A stretch of DNA of 64,000 nt, taken from Minisyncoccia bacterium (GTDB taxonomy: Bacteria > Patescibacteriota > Minisyncoccia > Phycocordibacterales > UBA9973). Each line of letters starts with the position of its first letter. Position 1 is the stretch's first letter. Under the pieces are notes generated by a model, which did no database searches, was not told the origin of the DNA, and saw nothing but the letters and a program-made list of their open reading frames with translations. The stretch is taken from NCBI GenBank assembly GCA_049287305.1, contig JBAQFO010000012.1:7113-71112 (forward strand), in the 5' to 3' direction. A program made the translations under genes and the position numbers. Below are positions 12,593 through 40,589 of this stretch, in pieces.

Positions 12593-13714
12593 TTAAGCAG
12601 CAGCTTTTTTAACTTCTTCAATCGAGTCGCCTTCAGCGACTACTTCCAAATTCTTATTTAATCTTCTAAATTTCCCTCCTTCTTTGCGAGGTTTGAGGAT
12701 GATGTCGTCTGAAACTTTTCCCCCTGTGCTCCAGCTTGAGTGTATACCCCAAGAAACAGATTCTTCAACATAAAAACCCGTTTCATCTTCAAACATAAGT
12801 GTTCCATCTTCTAACAAAATATTGTAGCCGAAGCCTGCTCTTACGACAGCTCGAGTCTTTGTATCATTCGGTACATATTCACCTATTTTGTGTAAAATTA
12901 TTGCATTTTTGTCTAGAATATAAATGTTATTGTCATGTTTTACCATCCATAAATTTCCCACGCTTGGTATTATTGGGTTATCGTATTCCTTAGATAGTTT
13001 CCCTGTTTCTGCGGAGAAAAGTCTATATTTAATGTCACCGAAAAAACCTCCATAAGTCACAATAACCGCGCTATCTTTCCGGACGCTACCTATTGCAGGA
13101 ATTTCTTGTTTAACGACTTCATGCCCCTGCTGATCGACAACAAAGTAACCATCTTGTTTGTTACCGACTATGCTAAAGCGGCCTACCGATTCAAACTTTG
13201 CTCTCATGGCCTCACCTCCCCTATTCTCGTAAATTTCTTTTTGCACAGCTTCTTTAAACTTTTCTTTATCCAAAAATTCTAAATTCGGAAATGTATTATC
13301 TATCTCATAAACTTTTTTACATAAATCAGAAATTGTATTTATGTCGTGCTCCAACAATTCAACGAACTCCTCCTGTGCAATATTAGCTAAAAAAAGCTCA
13401 ACAGCCTGTCGTATTTGGGTTACAAGATCATCGTATTCTTTAAATTTAACTAATTTTTCTGAGCTGTTCTCCTCGTTCTCATGCTTCGCCTGGTAGTTTA
13501 CGACACACTCATCAACTTGAGATAAAAATTGAGGCGCGAGTTCGGCTAACTGTTCTATCTTTTTCCTATTCTGTAATTCTTTTTTTTCTTGTTCTGCTAA
13601 AAAATCAGATCTCGTTACGGGGCCAAAATCAGTCGCACCGCGGATTATCGCTTCCTCTACCTCTTTTATATTCTGGTTACTATTTTCAGTATTCAAAAAG
13701 TTTTCTAAAGGCAT
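12593..13714 (-). CDS. Hypothetical protein
   Basis: 373-aa ORF with an acidic helical N-terminus and a Gly/Trp-containing beta-rich C-terminal half. No recognised motif. Confidence 0.55.
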   Translation of the reverse strand: MPLENFLNTENSNQNIKEVEEAIIRGATDFGPVTRSDFLAEQEKKELQNRKKIEQLAELAPQFLSQVDECVVNYQAKHENEENSSEKLVKFKEYDDLVTQIRQAVELFLANIAQEEFVELLEHDINTISDLCKKVYEIDNTFPNLEFLDKEKFKEAVQKEIYENRGGEAMRAKFESVGRFSIVGNKQDGYFVVDQQGHEVVKQEIPAIGSVRKDSAVIVTYGGFFGDIKYRLFSAETGKLSKEYDNPIIPSVGNLWMVKHDNNIYILDKNAIILHKIGEYVPNDTKTRAVVRAGFGYNILLEDGTLMFEDETGFYVEESVSWGIHSSWSTGGKVSDDIILKPRKEGGKFRRLNKNLEVVAEGDSIEEVKKAAA

Positions 13715-13744
13715 ATCAAGATCATATCACATCTTAAGTCTAAG

Positions 13745-14185
13745 TTACAAAATAACGTCACTGACTACTTTTATCTTTGCTTTTTTGTCTTTTAGGCTCA
13801 AAAATACAACCAATAAATCTACCTGCCACTCTTTTTCGTTAGGCACTTTTTTAGATAAAAGATATGTTTGAATTGTCCGGGACAGCCTCTTTTGTTTCCA
13901 GGGATGCATATTGTCTTCTGGATGATATTGGTCCAGGGTTTCATGCCCGCCTAGACTCGAGTTAGTCGAGGCTGGTGTAACCATTTCCAGGCTTTGTTTT
14001 GAAACTGATTTTACTTCCACAAAATGTATTTTATTGTCTTTCTCAGCAATTACGTCTATTTCACCCCATTTTTCAGTGAAGTTTCTTTCTAAAATTAAAA
14101 AATTATGTTTCATGAGAAACTTTACCGCCACGTTTTCCCCAATCTCTCCCACTTTTTGACTTTCGGAAGTAAATTTTTTAGGCAT
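13745..14185 (-). CDS. yraN: YraN/UPF0102 family putative endonuclease
   Basis: GEIGENVAVKFL...ILERNF...GEIDVIAEKDNKIHFVEVKS matches the UPF0102 core, with a roughly 40-aa insertion. Confidence 0.7.
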   Translation of the reverse strand: MPKKFTSESQKVGEIGENVAVKFLMKHNFLILERNFTEKWGEIDVIAEKDNKIHFVEVKSVSKQSLEMVTPASTNSSLGGHETLDQYHPEDNMHPWKQKRLSRTIQTYLLSKKVPNEKEWQVDLLVVFLSLKDKKAKIKVVSDVIL

Positions 14186-14421
14186 TTGAGTTATATTTCA
14201 CAAAACATCCCCAGTTTCACATGGAACATGTTTCACGTGAAACACTTAACTATATTTTAATGTCTTTTATCAAAATATCCTTATTTTACAATGCGTTTCT
14301 ATAAAAACAGGGGTCTTTTACAGGTTTTCAAAAGTGTCCTTTATAAACATTACCAACAGAGTTATCCACAGTTGTGCATAAAATCCTTATAAAGCTGGAT
14401 TTTTCTAAAGGACATCACTAA

Positions 14422-14495
14422 TGGTGCGGCCAGGGAGAATCGAACTCCCGTCTCATCCTTGGCAAGGACGTGTTCTACCACTAAACCATGACCGC
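14422..14495 (-). tRNA. tRNA-Gly (anticodon GCC), CCA encoded
   Basis: Reverse complement folds into a cloverleaf: gcggtca...tggccgc-acca, anticodon loop ttgccaa, T-arm gggag-ttcgatt-ctccc. Confidence 0.85.
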
Positions 14496-14626
14496 TAAAA
14501 AATAACCTTTTCATTATAGTATGTCTGTATGACTAATGCAATTAGCAAACAAGCTTGTAAAATAAGCCTTATTTGCCAATTTTATTATAATAGTGTAATA
14601 TATACGTATTAGTAAGTGATTAATTA

Positions 14627-14698
14627 GCACCCGTAGTGAAATGGATATCACAACAGTCTTCGGAACTGTCGTTGGGGGTTCGAATCCCTCCGGGTGCA
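14627..14698 (+). tRNA. tRNA-Arg (anticodon TCG)
   Basis: Acceptor gcacccg/cgggtgc, anticodon stem acagt/actgt with loop cttcgga, T-loop ttcgaat. Confidence 0.8.
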
Positions 14699-14708
14699 CA
14701 AAAGTAAA

Positions 14709-16262
14709 ATGGACTCTTCGAAAAACTTAATAGAAAAAATCCCCAAACAAGTTTCACATGTAACCACAACCTTAGAAAAGGCTGGTTTTGAGGCGTTCCT
14801 GGTGGGCGGATGCGTTAGGGACCTAATCATGGACAGGGAACCAAAGGACTGGGATATCACCACCAATGCAAAGCCAGAACAAATAATGGCATTGTTTGAG
14901 AAAACCGTATATGAGAATACTTTTGGGACCGTGGGGGTCTGCGTTCCGCGTGAAACGGAAAAAAGTGTTTCACATGTAACGCGAAAAGAGGAGGTTACTC
15001 ATGAAACATTCGAATATGATATTATTGAGGTGACTCCCTATAGAATTGAGACAAAATATAGCGATTTTAGACATCCGGACGAAGTCCGATTTAGCGATAA
15101 GCTTGAAGATGACCTTAAAAGACGTGACTTCACAGTCAATGCCTTAGCATTAAGAATTAGCGATAATTCTAAAGGACATGTAGTGGACCTATTTGGAGGC
15201 ATAAAGGACATAAAGGACAAAACATTAAAAGCCGTGGGGGAGGCGGATGATAGATTTTCGGAGGATGCGCTCCGAATGTTGCGAGCAGTGCGCTTCGCTT
15301 GCCAACTTGATTTTTCTGTGTCGTATGAAGTAACCCAAAGTATTGTAAAAAATTCGGAATTAATAAAAAAAATATCGGCTGAAAGAATTCGTGACGAGCT
15401 TGTAAAAATAATTATGTCAAAAAATTCCGCGAGTGGAATTACTATGCTCTCTAAATTCGGATTGTTAAAAAATATTATTCCGGAGCTTGAAGAGGGGATA
15501 GGGTGTGACCAATCCGGAGAACATATTTATGATGTGTGGACGCACTTACTTATGGCTATGCAGCATGCCGGGGACAAGAATTGGCCTTTAGAAATAAGGC
15601 TCTCCGCGCTGTTTCACGATATAGGCAAACCCCGAACGAGAAGGCTTGCTGAAGATAAAACCAAAAAAATGTATACGTTTTACGGACACGAAGTGGTGGG
15701 CGCCAGGATGACGAAAAAAATAATGGAGCGATTAAAGTTTCCGAAAAAAGAAATTGATTTCGTGGAAAAAATGGTGCGTAGCCACATGTTCTTTTCCGAT
15801 ACGGAACTCATTACTCTTTCCGCTGTGCGAAGAATTATTGCTAAAGTTGGAAAAGAAAATATCTGGCTCTTGATGAATGTGCGGGAGTGCGACCGAGTTG
15901 GCATGAAGAAAAAAGAAGCGCCGTATCGTCTGCGCAAGTATTTTGCGATGATAGAAGAGGCGCTCCGTGATCCGATATCGGTCAACCAGCTTAAAGTTGA
16001 CGGAGAGTTTATGATAAAAGAGCTTGAAATCAAACCTGGTCCCCGCATGGGCTGGATTTTGCACGCACTTTTAGAAGAAGTGCTGGATGCGCCGGAGAAA
16101 AACACAGTGGAGCATCTGTCCGACCTGGTAAAATCCCTGAACATGCTCGGCGATGCTGAACTAAAAGCCCTAGGGGAACGAGGGAAAGAGAAGAAAGAAG
16201 AATTAGAAGAGAAAGAGGTAGAAAAATTGCATTCCAAGCACGGAGTGAGGAAAAATTCGTAA
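14709..16262 (+). CDS. cca: CCA-adding enzyme / tRNA nucleotidyltransferase with HD domain
   Basis: GGCVRDLIMDREPKDWDITT Pol-beta nucleotidyltransferase head plus HD region (HDIGKP). Start taken at the ATG right after tRNA-Arg; the track's upstream GTG overlaps the tRNA. Contains insertions encoding a VSHVT repeat. Confidence 0.85.
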   Translation: MDSSKNLIEKIPKQVSHVTTTLEKAGFEAFLVGGCVRDLIMDREPKDWDITTNAKPEQIMALFEKTVYENTFGTVGVCVPRETEKSVSHVTRKEEVTHETFEYDIIEVTPYRIETKYSDFRHPDEVRFSDKLEDDLKRRDFTVNALALRISDNSKGHVVDLFGGIKDIKDKTLKAVGEADDRFSEDALRMLRAVRFACQLDFSVSYEVTQSIVKNSELIKKISAERIRDELVKIIMSKNSASGITMLSKFGLLKNIIPELEEGIGCDQSGEHIYDVWTHLLMAMQHAGDKNWPLEIRLSALFHDIGKPRTRRLAEDKTKKMYTFYGHEVVGARMTKKIMERLKFPKKEIDFVEKMVRSHMFFSDTELITLSAVRRIIAKVGKENIWLLMNVRECDRVGMKKKEAPYRLRKYFAMIEEALRDPISVNQLKVDGEFMIKELEIKPGPRMGWILHALLEEVLDAPEKNTVEHLSDLVKSLNMLGDAELKALGERGKEKKEELEEKEVEKLHSKHGVRKNS

Positions 16263-16701: not shown

Positions 16702-17490
16702 GTGAACGAACCCATAAATGAATTAAAAGTTTTGCTTTTAGAAATGGATTTTTCTGCGAAGGAGGCGGATGTGTATTTAGCAATTTTATCTCTGGGTCGA
16801 GGCACAGCATCGAAAATAGCTCGCGAGGCGCATATTCTTCGAACAACTGTCTATGAAATTTTAAGTTCTTTGTTTTCTAAAGGGTTGGTTACACTCTCAG
16901 GAAAAGAACCAAAACAAGAGTATGTTGCCGAGTCTCCGGACAATTTAAAAATTTATATTTCTAAACAGTTAGAGAAGAAACAAACAGATTTGAAACAAGC
17001 AGAGTCAATTTTAATTCCTCAGCTGAAGGCTAGGCACAATTTAGGCAACAGGCCGAAGGTGATGTTCTATGAAGGACGAGAAGGATTAGAAAAAGTTTAC
17101 GAAGATACACTTACCTCAAAAGAAACCATCAGAGTTTACGCGAACTTAGAACCGATGAATGCAGGGTTACCGGGATATTTCCCGGAATATTTCAAAAGAC
17201 GCACCAGACTTGGCATCGGCGTCCGAGCCATAGGGCCCAGAACAGAAGCTAATATTGAATTAGTTAAGAGAGATGCCGAAGAAAAACGTGAGACGGCTTT
17301 AGTGCCGAAAGATAAATATGACTTTTCTCCGGAAATAAATATTTATGACAACAAAGTAATGATAGCGTCATGGAAAGAAAAGCTCGGAATTATAATTGAG
17401 AGCCATGAAATAACTGATGCAATGAAAAAAGTTTTTGAACTGGCGTGGGCAGAGGCGAAAAGGTTGGATAAAGAAATAGAAAGTAATTAA
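16702..17490 (+). CDS. TrmB-family transcriptional regulator
   Basis: N-terminal wHTH ADVYLAILSLGRGTASKIAREAHILRTTVYEILSSLFSKGLV typical of TrmB-like regulators. Its stop overlaps the convergent Cys-rich gene. Confidence 0.75.
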   Translation: MNEPINELKVLLLEMDFSAKEADVYLAILSLGRGTASKIAREAHILRTTVYEILSSLFSKGLVTLSGKEPKQEYVAESPDNLKIYISKQLEKKQTDLKQAESILIPQLKARHNLGNRPKVMFYEGREGLEKVYEDTLTSKETIRVYANLEPMNAGLPGYFPEYFKRRTRLGIGVRAIGPRTEANIELVKRDAEEKRETALVPKDKYDFSPEINIYDNKVMIASWKEKLGIIIESHEITDAMKKVFELAWAEAKRLDKEIESN

Positions 17491-19178
17491 TAAACTTCCT
17501 GCTGATAGCAAGTTTCACAGTAAACTGTCTCCGGTCGGTCAGGGGAGCAAGAGGACATTATTTCTTTTTTACATTTAACGCAACTTCTTTGCCAAAGTTT
17601 CATAGGATTTCGCCTACTCAAACGTTCAAAATGTCGACAGTTCGGACATAAAATCGGCAGAGGAATTTTCATTTTTCTATAAAACTGTAATTCATTTGGA
17701 ATTATCTTAAAAGCCTGTGTACACTGATGGGTGCATTTTTGCTCATGATCGCAAGCTATAACTTCTTCGGTTATTGAATCTTTTACCATGGTTATGTTGT
17801 CGGGAACATCTTTGGTCTGAATAGTAACGTTGTAGGATCGAGCCTCATCATCTCCCCAAAAAAAGCCCATTTTTAAGGATTCCTCTTTGGTAATAGGGAA
17901 GTATTCCTGTGCCGTGCTCTCATTGTAAGGAATAGATGAAAGTTCACTAGGAAAAAATTCTCCGTATCCGTAAGAAAGCCCTCGCTGGTCTTTATATGGA
18001 TTTTTCAACATTCCATCTTTAATAATTTTCACGAGTTCATGAAATTTTTCCTTAGAGTATTTTTTATTGAGTATGCAATATTCTTTTGAGCGTAAACCTA
18101 CACATCCAAACAAAAATCCAGATGATTGGCAAAAAAGCCCGTATTCTATATCGTGCGAAGAATCGGTGTGAATTAAGAATTTACAATTATTTACCTCTTC
18201 TGGGCTTACGCCCTCATATACAAGTTCGCTGCCACCCATTCCAAAAACATCAGAAATATCCTTACTTGAAAAAACCCAAGAGCTATATCTTGCTTTCTCA
18301 AGATTGAATCCATCAAAAACATAGTAGCAATCTTTAGCATTTTCCAAATGATCCCCGACACAATTTACGCAATTTACTTGCTTGGTATTTCTTACTATTG
18401 AATTCTTTTTGATATTTTCGAATTTATCTAACAGATCGTTGCGAGTTTTTCTAGAGCCTAGGTCAAGCTCACCAATTTTTTCTTTATAACTTTCTGGAGA
18501 AAGTTTTTTACCAAAAAAATAATTACTTACAGAACGCAAATTGACTCCTCCGATAGAGTTCGTTATATTTCTGCTCGAAGCAAGGTAATGGCTGTCTACT
18601 ACAGCTTCTCCTTCCTCAATAAATGTACTTCCGTAGGACTTATCTACGTTTAAACATTCATAAAGATTTTCAGAATAATGCGAATAGGTTGAGTCGTAAG
18701 TGTTTTTTAAAGCTACAGCACGAGCTACATATGCCGAATCCTCACTATCTCTAAAACCATACGATAAGTAAGTATTTTTATTTGCGTAAGAAATATTTGT
18801 GTAATCAGAGTTAGTGCATTGCACTATCCATATGCCAAGTCTAGGAACTTTAACCAATAAATCTTTTATTTGCGCAAAGAAAGTTTTAGACTTGTCATAA
18901 TCTATGCCGTAAGCCATAGGGTCCCAAGCATCACTTGTATAGCAGGTATGGCAATATACAGGGAACGATACGTCACTTCGGTATACGGATATAAAATCTT
19001 TTTTACACAAATCACACTGACGTTTGTGCAGACTACGCTCGTTACGCCAGGAAAATCTTCTTTGTGCTCTACAGTCGGGGCAAAAAGTAGGGAATGGCAC
19101 GCTTATTTTCTTGTAGAAATTTAAGTCTTCACTCTTTAGCGTGAAGTCCTTTTTGCAGTTTTGGCAATTCTTTTCCAT
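17487..19178 (-). CDS. Cys-rich protein with N- and C-terminal double zinc-ribbon modules (paralog B)
   Basis: 563 aa with CxxC pairs at both ends (CQNCKKDF...FCPDCRAQRR...CDLCKKDF...YCHTCY and ...LCPNCRHFERL...CVKCKK...VYCETCYQQEVY). Paralogous to 20277..22049. Confidence 0.7.
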   Translation of the reverse strand: MEKNCQNCKKDFTLKSEDLNFYKKISVPFPTFCPDCRAQRRFSWRNERSLHKRQCDLCKKDFISVYRSDVSFPVYCHTCYTSDAWDPMAYGIDYDKSKTFFAQIKDLLVKVPRLGIWIVQCTNSDYTNISYANKNTYLSYGFRDSEDSAYVARAVALKNTYDSTYSHYSENLYECLNVDKSYGSTFIEEGEAVVDSHYLASSRNITNSIGGVNLRSVSNYFFGKKLSPESYKEKIGELDLGSRKTRNDLLDKFENIKKNSIVRNTKQVNCVNCVGDHLENAKDCYYVFDGFNLEKARYSSWVFSSKDISDVFGMGGSELVYEGVSPEEVNNCKFLIHTDSSHDIEYGLFCQSSGFLFGCVGLRSKEYCILNKKYSKEKFHELVKIIKDGMLKNPYKDQRGLSYGYGEFFPSELSSIPYNESTAQEYFPITKEESLKMGFFWGDDEARSYNVTIQTKDVPDNITMVKDSITEEVIACDHEQKCTHQCTQAFKIIPNELQFYRKMKIPLPILCPNCRHFERLSRRNPMKLWQRSCVKCKKEIMSSCSPDRPETVYCETCYQQEVY

Positions 19179-27233: not shown

Positions 27234-28142
27234 TTAAGGTTTGTTGTGAAATTTTTTATGAATGTCCCGTAGGTGCTTATCGGTGACGTGAGTATAAATT
27301 TGCGTGGTGCCAATATTGGCATGTCCAAGTATTGCTTGGACCGAACGCAGGTCAGCGCCGTTGCCGAGCAGGTCGGTGGCAAACATGTGTCTCATGACGT
27401 GCGGAGTAACCTTTTTGGAAATGCCTGCTTTGATTGCATGTTGTTTTACTATACGTTCAACCGATCTTTTGGTCAGAGGACTTGCTTCTCCTTTTTCTTT
27501 ACCCATTTGCACAAAGAGCGCCTCGCTCATATCTTTGCGAGCTCCAAGATATTTTTTTACAGCATCTTTCGCGTCTTCCGATATAAAAACTACCCGCACT
27601 TTTCCTCCCTTCCCGCGTATAGACAGCTCATCTGAATGTAGGTCTATATCCGAGGTTAGGGAACACAATTCGGAGACACGGAGACCAGTAGAAAACAAAA
27701 GTTCAAGAATTGCTTTGTCCCGCAGGTCTTTTAAGTCAGACCCGCTTGGAGACTTTAAAAGTCGGGACAACTCTAAATGAGTAATTAAATCCAGAGACCT
27801 TTCTCCCACTTTAGCGAGCTCTATTCTATCAGGAGACATGGAGCTTATATTTTCTCGCGCCAAGTATTTTAAAAATGCCCTAATAGCGATAAGGTAGTAA
27901 TTTTGAGTTTTTTTAGAAAGCGTATCTCCGGTAGCTTTGTTGTTGCCAGTTGACTGTCGGTTGAGCCATAGGCGGAATTCTCGAACTACGGTGTCGTTTA
28001 TTTTACCGGGGTCATCTAATTTTATATATTGTAGAAATACAGAAAGGTAGTGGTCATAATTTTCTACAGTCTTCAGGGCTCGTCCTTTTTCTATTTCTGT
28101 ATATTCCAAAAATTGGGTTTTTAGTTGCTTTAAGGATGCCAT
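27234..28142 (-). CDS. xerD: Tyrosine site-specific recombinase XerC/XerD
   Basis: Catalytic-domain signature RHMFATDLLGNGADLRSVQAILGHANIGTTQIYTHV. Confidence 0.85.
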   Translation of the reverse strand: MASLKQLKTQFLEYTEIEKGRALKTVENYDHYLSVFLQYIKLDDPGKINDTVVREFRLWLNRQSTGNNKATGDTLSKKTQNYYLIAIRAFLKYLARENISSMSPDRIELAKVGERSLDLITHLELSRLLKSPSGSDLKDLRDKAILELLFSTGLRVSELCSLTSDIDLHSDELSIRGKGGKVRVVFISEDAKDAVKKYLGARKDMSEALFVQMGKEKGEASPLTKRSVERIVKQHAIKAGISKKVTPHVMRHMFATDLLGNGADLRSVQAILGHANIGTTQIYTHVTDKHLRDIHKKFHNKP

Positions 28143-38832: not shown

Positions 38833-38851
38833 TTATCCACAGGCAAGTTGT

Positions 38852-38881
38852 TGACAAGTGAACGCTCGTTCACTTATACTA
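38852..38881 (+). promoter_or_regulatory. Sigma70-like promoter with embedded perfect LexA (Cheo-type) box
   Basis: TTGACA-[aGTGAACGCTCGTTCACt]-TATACT. The 18-nt spacer is a perfect palindrome containing GAAC-N4-GTTC. Confidence 0.6.
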
Positions 38882-38929
38882 TTTACATGACCAAGTCGCG
38901 GGTCAAATTAGTAAATTAAAGACAAAGTT

Positions 38930-39130: not shown

Positions 39131-39697
39131 ATGAAGAATCTTCACCAGATAAAAATAGAATCTTTCTACGGCGAGAATAAGAGGATGCCGACGTATTCCG
39201 AGATGATGAAGCTCTTCGGCTTCAAGTCCAAGAATGCGGTTTTTAAAGTTGTAGAAAAGCTCCTGGATGCTGGACTAGTAGCTAAGGACCACTTGGGCAG
39301 ACTCGTGCCATCCGAAACATTCGGCGAAGTGCCTATGCTTGGGTTCGTGACTGCTGGGTTCCCAGCAACAGTGGAGGAAGAAATGGCAGATACGGTCAAC
39401 CTGGACGATATGCTTATAAAAAACAAACCGCTTACTTATATGCTGGAGGTTGACGGCGACTCAATGATAGAGGCGCACATAGAAAAAGGGGATATGGTTC
39501 TCGTTGAGAAATGCAACAATGCCAAAGATGGGGATATTGTGATTGCGGAAGTTGACGGAGAATTTACGATGAAATATTTTAAAAAAAGGGGCGACAAAGC
39601 ATGGCTTGAACCAGCGAATAAAAATTATAAGCCTATATATCCGGAGCACTCTTTAAATATAAATGCGGTAGTAAAAGCGGTGATTAGGAAATACTGA
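39131..39697 (+). CDS. lexA: LexA repressor
   Basis: N-terminal wHTH plus the S24 peptidase domain VDGDSMIEAHIEKGDMVLV with catalytic Ser/Lys (TMKYF). Confidence 0.85.
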   Translation: MKNLHQIKIESFYGENKRMPTYSEMMKLFGFKSKNAVFKVVEKLLDAGLVAKDHLGRLVPSETFGEVPMLGFVTAGFPATVEEEMADTVNLDDMLIKNKPLTYMLEVDGDSMIEAHIEKGDMVLVEKCNNAKDGDIVIAEVDGEFTMKYFKKRGDKAWLEPANKNYKPIYPEHSLNINAVVKAVIRKY

Positions 39698-40316: not shown

Positions 40317-40589
40317 TTACGCAACCATATCTTTCAAACCTTTTGCAGGTCGGAATTTTGGCACTTTCTTCGCGGCTACTTTAACTTGCTCTCCAGTCTT
40401 TGGATTGCGAGCCATTCTTGCTGCGCGAGCTTTTACTGAGAAGATTCCGAAGCCAGCTATTGATACTTCCTGTCCTTTCTTTAAGGTTCCAATGATAGCA
40501 TCAAACATTCCGTCTACGAGTTCTTCAGCTTGAACCTTCGTTCCTCCTAATTTTCCGTGGACCCATTCAGCTAATGCTTGTTTATTCAT
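40317..40589 (-). CDS. hup: DNA-binding protein HU
   Basis: 90 aa with the characteristic GFGIFSVKARAARMARNPKTGE arm. Confidence 0.9.
   Translation of the reverse strand: MNKQALAEWVHGKLGGTKVQAEELVDGMFDAIIGTLKKGQEVSIAGFGIFSVKARAARMARNPKTGEQVKVAAKKVPKFRPAKGLKDMVA

Follow-up and report, generated by a model that had tools for sequence, protein, structure and literature searches.

The yraN-cca locus and its repeated sites

Within the window, as we call the whole 64-kb stretch of DNA analysed here, a short palindromic motif and its variants recur over 0.9 kb. The cluster reaches from the 5' end of yraN across the intergenic region shared with tRNA-Gly into cca, of which it occupies the first 300 bp. 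The genes and sites are as follows:

13745-14185, minus strand: yraN (UPF0102; Pfam PF02021, E = 1.8e-16), host of one parS-like site
14107-14120: degenerate parS-like site GTTTCATGAGAAAC within yraN codons 22-27 (K-F-L-M-K-H, minus strand)
14214-14227: degenerate parS-like site GTTTCACATGGAAC, 16 bp left of the primary site
14229-14244: putative primary parS, TGTTTCACGTGAAACA, a perfect 16-bp palindrome in the yraN/tRNA-Gly intergenic region
14230-14243: core 14-mer of the primary site, GTTTCACGTGAAAC
14422-14495, minus strand: tRNA-Gly(GCC), within the cluster
14573-14601: promoter-like site by tRNA-Arg(TCG)
14627-14699, plus strand: tRNA-Arg(TCG), 10 nt upstream of cca
14709-16262, plus strand: cca, CCA-adding enzyme (Pfam PolyA_pol, PolyA_pol_RNAbd, HD), host of four parS-like sites
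14751-14764: parS-like site GTTTCACATGTAAC, cca codons 15-19 (V-S-H-V-T), N-terminal helix
14943-14956: parS-like unit GTTCCGCGTGAAAC (V-P-R-E-T), unit 1 of the Cca hairpin insertion
14967-14980: parS-like unit GTTTCACATGTAAC (V-S-H-V-T), unit 2 of the hairpin insertion
14994-15007: parS-like unit GTTACTCATGAAAC (V-T-H-E-T), unit 3 of the hairpin insertion, with 3 mismatches

The start codon of yraN is 29 bp from the tandem intergenic sites. An Rfam scan of positions 13500-15500 revealed the two tRNAs only and no other RNA element.

All four 14-mers listed in the first-pass annotation are present in the sequence (14214-14227, 14230-14243, 14751-14764 and 14967-14980), although the first cca copy had been placed one base off, at 14752-14765. 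The copy at 14230-14243 is a perfect palindrome, as described there, and extends to 16 bp; both cca copies do encode V-S-H-V-T in frame. The inverted partner GTGAAAC at 14950-14956 turned out to be the right half of the further site at 14943-14956, and the cluster as a whole is larger than had been noticed (seven copies, not four).

In bacteria, parS is a nearly universal centromere sequence, to which ParB, a protein of chromosome partitioning, binds. The palindrome at 14229-14244 is identical to the 16-bp parS consensus TGTTNCACGTGAAACA, and its 14-mer core is the same as that listed for Mycobacterium smegmatis (PMC7022226). The other six of the seven copies differ from the 14-bp core at 2-3 bases. 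The variant right half ATGKAAC is common to three copies, and GTTTCACAAGAAAC is a candidate degenerate copy, as is the conserved variant GTTTCACATGTAAC. Judging from their sequences, some of the degenerate copies may be weak sites or half-sites.

When up to three mismatches to the core were allowed, 10 matches were found in the 64 kb, seven of them inside 14107-15007; with up to two mismatches, all six matches in the 96.9 kb of source contig covered were located at 14107-14980. None of 100 dinucleotide shuffles reached the observed counts, and chance is therefore excluded, which bears out the earlier suspicion of non-random clustering.

Conservation of the cluster in related genomes

The cluster is found at the same positions over yraN, the two tRNA genes and cca in about 40 related species of Candidatus Nomurabacteria, among which the yraN synteny is conserved. 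In total, 168 of 174 matches in 42 related loci (420 kb) fell in the zone from yraN to the 5' part of cca, and the remaining six lay deeper in cca. A dispersed mini-repeat had also been proposed, but in the window and in these 42 loci the motif is found at the cluster locus only.

Nearly all close relatives have a primary parS sequence, perfect or with one mismatch, in the equivalent position, and in most relatives a second degenerate site is located 16-32 bp from it. About 26 relatives have the 5' copy in cca as the identical 14-mer (GTTTCACATGTAAC), at +39 to +48. Canonical parS sequences in or beside cca were also revealed in more distant Paceibacteria, and one relative (L064) contains 12.6 tandem 56-bp repeats with one perfect parS in each.

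Alignment of Cca orthologs bore on the suggestion that two short duplications inside cca had created the VSHVT segments. This holds for the second segment only, which is part of a hairpin that is specific to the lineage and inserted between the strands GTVGV and IEVTPYR (about 22 aa, residues 78-103); in the alignment with PDB entry 6ibp, the step from residue 77 to 104 of the query corresponds to that from 110 to 115 of the chain. The insertion varies in length, with between one and four V-x-x-E-T parS units in frame. At the first VSHVT nothing has been inserted; it stands in place of ordinary residues of the N-terminal helix (IPKEVKxV... in distant orthologs).

Codon usage at the sites was found to be strongly restricted. 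At Cca codons 15-18 the relatives have GTT (38/39), TCA (32/35), CAT (23/24) and GTA (32/34); no such restriction is seen in the Val, Ser and Thr codons nearby. Among 55 V-x-x-E-T units, Val is always GTT (55/55, background 0.31), accompanied by GAA (54/55, background 0.69), ACA (47/55, 0.36), TCA (21/27, 0.17) and, for Arg, CGT (19/23, 0.16). The yraN site shows the same in 35 orthologs: AAG for Lys (22/23, background 0.25), CTC for Leu (28/35, 0.12), GTG for Val (17/17, 0.18) and AAA for Lys (35/35). Because synonymous positions are frozen to the codon that matches parS, selection acts on the DNA and not on the encoded peptide, and it is visible across the related genomes both in fixed positions and in frozen codons.

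Taken with the location of the copies, which are origin-proximal and not dispersed over the 96.9 kb of contig, the sequence data make it highly probable (we would put it at about 88%) that the repeated 14-mers are a cluster of parS sites forming a chromosomal centromere, in which a perfect 16-bp palindrome is joined by six degenerate copies within 0.9 kb. It is a new member of an ordinary kind of element, parS; what is unusual is the overlap with coding sequence.

Origin context and a second motif

The dnaA-dnaN genes, with an AT-rich, box-bearing intergenic region, are located about 30 kb from the cluster on the same contig. The spacing is 29.7 kb and is the same in a relative. The dnaA-dnaN spacer contains tandem boxes and a trio-like run, is 79-89% AT, and by these features looks more like a canonical origin than the locus of the parS cluster does. 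Further elements were revealed around the cluster itself:

14260 (plus), 14334 (plus) and 14405 (minus): three copies of the ATGTCCTTTAT motif (span 14260-14415), flanking the DnaA box
14350-14381: DnaA-box group, with TTACCAACA at 14350, perfect TTATCCACA at 14362 and inverted TGTGCATAA at 14373
15169, 15201 and 15210, minus strand: three more copies of the ATGTCCTTTAT motif (span 15169-15220), inside cca in two reading frames

The perfect DnaA box at 14362 is kept in all 35 relatives having upstream sequence, and the other two boxes are imperfect. The spacer between the tRNAs is 131 bp long and AT-rich. The cumulative GC skew, calculated over 88 kb, has its minimum at 14771. For the GC skew at third codon positions the best breakpoint is 14447, yet the sign also changes at dnaA-dnaN, and the skew averages about zero in the 26 kb between these two points. 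The skew minimum and the breakpoint at 14447 both fall at the cluster, which may itself be oriC, although the dnaA-dnaN spacer has the more canonical arrangement.

A second motif, TGTCCTTTAT, clusters with parS around the conserved DnaA box, which the ATGTCCTTTAT copies flank as an inverted repeat. The cca codons within the ATGTCCTTTAT copies are frozen as well (Lys166 AAG in 37/39, background 0.25; Asp167 GAC in 39/39, 0.35; Gly156 GGA in 28/30, 0.34). One could go further and propose a composite chromosome-organising centre across Paceibacteria, made up of parS, the universally conserved DnaA-box group and the lineage-specific ATGTCCTTTAT motif, whose copies in both cca reading frames would be under selection at the DNA level, with the Cca insert present solely for centromere function; we consider this extension doubtful. 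If true, it would imply either a DNA-binding factor that links the centromere with DnaA or a second place, 30 kb away from dnaA, where replication starts, and, through the in-frame multiplication of parS, a housekeeping enzyme carrying a variable insert owing to centromere function alone.

Search for ParB and possible function of the sites

In the search for ParB, the contig was extended in two steps, from a TraC-like protein and then from DnaA, which reached jag-yidC-yidD-rnpA-rpmH, dnaA-dnaN and a further 10 kb. No ParB or ParA gene was revealed in these 96.9 kb of source contig, either by Pfam scans of the ORFs in the window, which gave no DnaA either, or by the Pfam labels of the contig extensions. 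Tblastn searches of the window and 84 loci with Spo0J, Soj and DnaA gave no ParB or ParA either; the single match was a DnaA adjoining cca in one locus (L077). PDB entry 6sdk served to validate the Spo0J query. The ParB search thus extended over 96.9 kb of source contig, about 15% of the genome, and the cca loci of relatives. We infer that ParB is encoded elsewhere in the genome and binds these sites, the degenerate copies included.

If ParB behaves here as in all ParABS systems studied, its dimers, bound to CTP, would nucleate on the parS sites, close into clamps and slide onto the adjoining DNA. The partition complex formed near the origin would load SMC condensin and, where ParA is present, partition complexes would be pulled apart after replication. 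Several adjacent parS sites could make ParB loading robust. The multiplication of parS units in frame, with 24-27-nt spacing, would have produced the variable-length insertion in the Cca beta-hairpin, and the VSHVT and V-x-x-E-T peptides of Cca and K-F-L-(V/M)-K of YraN would be by-products of parS written into coding sequence.

Alternative explanations

The first alternative supposes that the lineage is without ParB and that the reader of its parS-like sequences is not a canonical ParB but, for instance, a Noc-like or another ParB paralogue or an unrelated HTH protein. It draws on the lack of ParB/ParA in the 96.9 kb around the cluster and in any related locus, and on the non-consensus right half that three copies have in common. 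We find it improbable: the primary site matches the canonical palindrome exactly and is kept so in dozens of species, and a ParB missing from about 15% of the genome is weak evidence of absence. A Noc-binding site in particular was rejected, the sites being GTTTCACGTGAAAC and not the Noc palindrome ATTTCCCGGGAAAT; at the specificity positions that tell the two apart, the cluster sites are of the parS type.

An operator array for LexA or another regulator, controlling yraN and/or the tRNA-Arg-cca transcript, would suit the two sites that precede the yraN start codon by 29-58 bp and the presence in the window of a LexA-like gene (Peptidase_S24) and a TrmB-family regulator. In addition, GGAACATGTTTC is one base off GAAC-N4-GTTC, and the first-pass annotation had read it as a near-LexA box. 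However, the candidate reads GAACATGTTTC, and the window has just two perfect GAAC-N4-GTTC boxes of this (Cheo) type, one at 40532 and the other at 38860, where the -35 and -10 of the LexA-like gene enclose it. The string GGAACATGTTTC is merely the junction of two parS-like sites; this GGAAC...TTTC junction is specific to the window and is not conserved in the orthologous promoters, where the inter-site spacing varies from 16 to 32 bp. TrmB was rejected as the binder, since linkage of its gene to the locus is unstable (just 10 relatives have it near cca, and the distance varies). Moreover, most copies are deep in coding sequence and the consensus is exactly parS. Thus, of the earlier idea of a transcription-factor site array, the array for a DNA-binding protein stands, with ParB as the matching protein in place of a transcription factor, and regulation by LexA or its like is very improbable.

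Even less credit can be given to an origin of the repeats in selection for a peptide motif (VSHVT or VSxET) or in neutral tandem duplication within cca, the likeness at the DNA level being secondary. Both cca copies noted at first are indeed in frame and encode the same pentapeptide, and the hairpin insertion is repetitive, but the codons are fixed to the parS-matching synonym far above background, and the same DNA motif is found in yraN, in another frame and strand, and in non-coding DNA. Selection at the peptide level is ruled out by the codon counts. Finally, a mobile mini-repeat, attachment site or element remnants integrated next to tRNA genes might be suspected from the two tRNA genes close by and the tyrosine recombinase gene at 27234-28142, but this is hardly credible given that about 40 species share the same fixed positions and synteny and that the 96.9 kb of contig have no further copies; flanking direct repeats and element genes are missing as well.

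Significance of the probable parS cluster

If the parS reading is right, it gives the position of the chromosomal centromere in a large uncultivated group, the Nomurabacteria/Paceibacteria of the Candidate Phyla Radiation. In a full-text literature search, neither parS nor ParB was found described for this group, and a search on parS, ParB and oriC in Patescibacteria gave nothing directly relevant except a report that the type IV secretion (T4SS) gene cluster sits near dnaA (PMC12102498). The cluster would also be a sequence landmark for the origin domain, helping to orient and check metagenome-assembled genomes. It offers a clean natural case of overlapping codes: the choice of synonymous codons in two housekeeping genes is limited by a DNA-binding site, which, multiplying in frame, probably led to a variable-length insertion in the CCA-adding enzyme. 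For those who align or model Cca proteins, this insert should then be treated as a feature of the DNA and not of the enzyme.

Comparison with known centromeres

Individual sites of the known chromosomal parS sets are also found inside genes, for example in spo0J. As in Bacillus subtilis, Corynebacterium glutamicum and M. smegmatis, the palindrome here is TGTTNCACGTGAAACA and is present in several copies in the origin domain; of the parS sites of these species, eight out of 10, 10 out of 10 and three out of three, respectively, belong to this domain (PMC7022226). In contrast to those sets, the seven copies here are packed into 0.9 kb that is not next to parAB, several of them are in frame in two unrelated housekeeping genes, and a single perfect copy is accompanied by conserved degenerate ones.

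ParB of Pseudomonas aeruginosa binds half-parS sites, GTTTCAC or GTTCCAC (PMC7022226). The degenerate copies described here also keep a perfect GTTTCAC half, with the second half weakened; however, the half-sites of P. aeruginosa are dispersed in hundreds, whereas those in our cluster are confined to it and positionally conserved.

The plasmid centromere sopC of F consists of tandem repeats. The 12.6 tandem 56-bp units of L064, with one perfect palindrome each, resemble it, and the in-frame 24-27-nt Cca units look like a miniature version of the same arrangement. Unlike in sopC, the binding motif here is the chromosomal parS, and the array of the window is located inside an ORF and must encode a tolerated peptide.

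A predicted parS cluster spanning yraN and cca

Scanning the 64-kb window with up to three mismatches to the 14-bp core revealed 10 matches, seven of them within 14107–15007. One lies inside yraN, two in the spacer upstream of this gene and four within the initial 300 bp of cca, which encodes the CCA-adding enzyme.

Genes and parS-like sites at the locus (window coordinates)
13745–14185, minus strand, yraN (UPF0102)
14422–14495, minus strand, tRNA-Gly(GCC)
14627–14699, plus strand, tRNA-Arg(TCG)
14709–16262, plus strand, cca
14107, 14214, 14230, 14751, 14943, 14967, 14994, parS-like sites (up to three mismatches to the 14-bp core)

All four 14-mers reported in the first-pass annotation are present, the third at 14751–14764, one base further left than annotated. 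The "inverted partner" placed at 14950 exists as sequence and forms the right-hand part of the site at 14943 rather than a separate element. The copies were rightly judged unlikely to arise by chance: no dinucleotide-preserving shuffle reached the observed counts.

The tandem pair, widened by one base on either side, yields a perfect 16-bp palindrome, TGTTTCACGTGAAACA, at 14229–14244. The conserved chromosomal parS bound by the partition protein ParB (Spo0J) is TGTTNCACGTGAAACA, and its Mycobacterium smegmatis form is GTTTCACGTGAAAC (PMC7022226). The primary site matches the parS consensus perfectly; the remaining six retain one good GTTTCAC half and deviate at two to three positions. The motif group is predicted to be a parS centromere cluster, with a probability of about 0.88. 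An element of a known kind is thereby newly located in a Candidate Phyla Radiation lineage, and its notable trait is the overlap with coding sequence; a companion motif is also present.

Canonical ParB and ParA were found neither in the 96.9 kb read of the source contig nor in any related locus; the Spo0J query of the tblastn search was validated against PDB entry 6sdk (E = 3e-121). Because the canonical palindrome is strictly conserved, the genome very likely encodes a cognate ParB.

Only 10 nt separate the tRNA-Arg(TCG) 3' end from the cca start (14699–14709), and the sole promoter-like site for cca lies upstream of this tRNA (14573–14601), so that cca is probably co-transcribed with a tRNA. 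Convergent to cca is the gene of a 563-aa protein (17487–19178, minus strand) with CxxC zinc-ribbon motifs at both termini and no Pfam family above threshold, retained there in 27 relatives.

Position relative to the replication origin

Pfam scans of ORFs and tblastn revealed no dnaA or parAB within the window. The contig was read beyond it using a TraC-like protein, then DnaA, as handles. The genes jag-yidC-yidD-rnpA-rpmH and divergent dnaA-dnaN are located about 27–31 kb left of the parS cluster, with a type IV secretion (T4SS) gene cluster in between; a T4SS cluster near dnaA has been reported for Paceibacteria (PMC12102498). In the dnaA-dnaN spacer (79–89% AT), conserved boxes in tandem (TTATCCACTTATCCCCA) precede a CTA/ATA/TTA run, an arrangement that reads as a canonical origin signature. 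In one relative the dnaA-cca spacing is also 29.7 kb. This distance, with its match in the relative, places the parS cluster close to the origin, where such clusters usually lie.

Evidence on whether the cluster is itself an origin points both ways. The cumulative GC-skew minimum (88 kb) falls at 14771, the best breakpoint of third-codon-position GC skew, with gene orientation controlled, at 14447, and gene orientation switches at the cluster. However, the third-codon-position skew changes sign at dnaA-dnaN too, and its mean is near zero over the 26 kb of minus-strand genes in between. The parS cluster can only be said to mark the right-hand limit of the origin zone.

This solely minus-strand block between rpmH/dnaA-dnaN and the cluster (within about −16.8 kb to +14.2 kb in window coordinates; labels L085, L089) includes the T4SS cluster, ksgA, ubiA and uvrD, genes that would run head-on to a fork from dnaA-dnaN. 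The outer arms beside it have clear opposite skews.

A companion motif and DnaA boxes

The same locus also holds a cluster of a second motif, ATGTCCTTTAT, which reads ATAAAGGACAT on the other strand. With up to one mismatch it has 15 matches against 4.0 expected, a number reached by no shuffle, and all five exact window copies of its 9-bp core TGTCCTTTA lie within 14335–15219. Its copies are at 14260 (+), 14334 (+), 14405 (−), 15169 (−), 15201 (−) and 15210 (−), positions conserved in about 40 relatives. Within cca the motif occupies two reading frames and fixes minority codons (AAG 37/39, GAC 39/39, GGA 28/30), and is thus under DNA-level selection in both.

Plus and minus copies flank, as an inverted repeat, a perfect DnaA box TTATCCACA at 14362, kept in each of the 35 relatives for which upstream sequence exists. 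Distant relatives have a compact composite of the two elements beside parS, just 3' of cca (e.g., TAAAGGACAgtcTGTGGATAActTGTCCTTTA in locus L041). Relative to the cca start it lies at +1669..+1734 in L041, +1780..+1825 in L044 and +1510..+1552 in L045. In distant relatives the motif accompanies parS, and loci that lack parS lack it too.

The window contains five copies of TTATCCACA against about 0.5 expected, all on the plus strand (14362, 38833, 45550, 54402, 58260); four are intergenic, directly upstream of plus-strand genes or promoter-like −35/−10 elements. DnaA, or another reader of this 9-mer, may act here as a general transcription factor.

Selection on DNA within coding sequence

The comparison set comprised 80 loci fetched with Cca, one genome per species; about 40 were close relatives (Cca identity 69–83%), the closest being Candidatus Nomurabacteria/Paceibacterota metagenome-assembled genomes. 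Two VSHVT insertions in Cca had been suggested. The N-terminal one is not an insertion, since distant orthologs have IPKEVKxV... at the equivalent place in the helix. The second region is: between the GTVGV and IEVTPYR strands, a short hairpin is present in distant orthologs and in CCA-adding enzymes of solved structure, and the PDB 6ibp alignment skips from query 77 to 104 against chain 110 to 115. Loops in the Nomurabacteria clade range from 14 residues with one V-S-Q/R-E-T unit to 56 residues with four. Units are in frame 0 throughout, typically spaced by 27 nt, and loop length correlates with site number (r = 0.73); the window Cca has three (VPRET, VSHVT, VTHET).

Among 55 V-x-x-E-T hairpin units, Val is GTT in 55/55 (background 0.31), Glu GAA in 54/55 (0.69), Thr ACA in 47/55 (0.36), Arg CGT in 19/23 (0.16) and Ser TCA in 21/27 (0.17), together spelling GTT TCA CGT GAA ACA. 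Cca codons 15–18 are similarly GTT (38/39), TCA (32/35), CAT (23/24) and GTA (32/34), while nearby Val, Ser and Thr codons use every synonym and the Thr19 third base, directly beyond the 14-mer, is unconstrained. The yraN site, on the opposite strand and in a different frame (peptide K-F-L-V/M-K), fixes minority codons as well: AAG 22/23 (0.25), CTC 28/35 (0.12), GTG 17/17 (0.18). Therefore, selection acts on the DNA, and the encoded peptides are by-products.

Conservation of the locus

Close relatives retain the order yraN(−)/parS/DnaA box/tRNA/AT-rich spacer/tRNA/cca(+). The palindrome, perfect or with one mismatch, lies about 500 bp upstream of cca with a degenerate neighbour 16–32 bp away; one or two sites occur in the 5' part of yraN; within cca, GTTTCACATGTAAC recurs at +42 and a further one to four sites fall between +230 and +370. 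With up to two mismatches, 168 of 174 matches in 420 kb of related loci fall in the yraN-to-cca-5' zone and the other six deeper in cca; in the 96.9 kb of source contig, all six lie within 14107–14980. Since sites recur at fixed places and matches are confined to this zone, the motif is neither a dispersed repeat nor promoter-associated, as had been proposed.

The divergent tRNA pair with its AT-rich spacer (14422–14699) is inverted (Arg minus, Gly plus) in about nine relatives (L006, L009, L015, L017, L022, L028, L033, L034, L038), with flanking parS, DnaA box and cca unmoved.

A LexA box suspected here, GGAACATGTTTC, is a chance junction of two parS-like sites that adjoin at a non-conserved spacing; true perfect Cheo-type boxes lie elsewhere, GAACGCTCGTTC between the −35 and −10 of a LexA-like gene (Peptidase_S24, 39131–39697) and GAACCTTCGTTC at 40532–40543. 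Upstream of the LexA-like gene (38833–38890) the order is TTATCCACA, TTGACA, GAACGCTCGTTC, TATACT. An Rfam scan of 13500–15500 found only the two tRNAs, and a mobile element is ruled out by the fixed synteny.

Paceibacteria with Cca only 44–57% identical have canonical parS in or directly beside cca at other positions (L041, L042, L044, L045, L051, L052, L056, L057), e.g., as GSRET/FSRET at codons 300–325 or flanking both gene ends. Because these distant lineages also have parS at cca, the predicted cca-centromere linkage predates the Nomurabacteria clade. Directly 3' of cca in locus L064 (CAZDVN010000001.1, 7489–8390), a 56-bp unit is repeated 12.6 times in tandem in non-coding DNA; every unit has a perfect TGTTTCACGTGAAACA or a GGAACA variant, and the array holds 15 sites in 0.9 kb. 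Its layout is similar to that of the plasmid centromere sopC, but it is made up of chromosomal parS.
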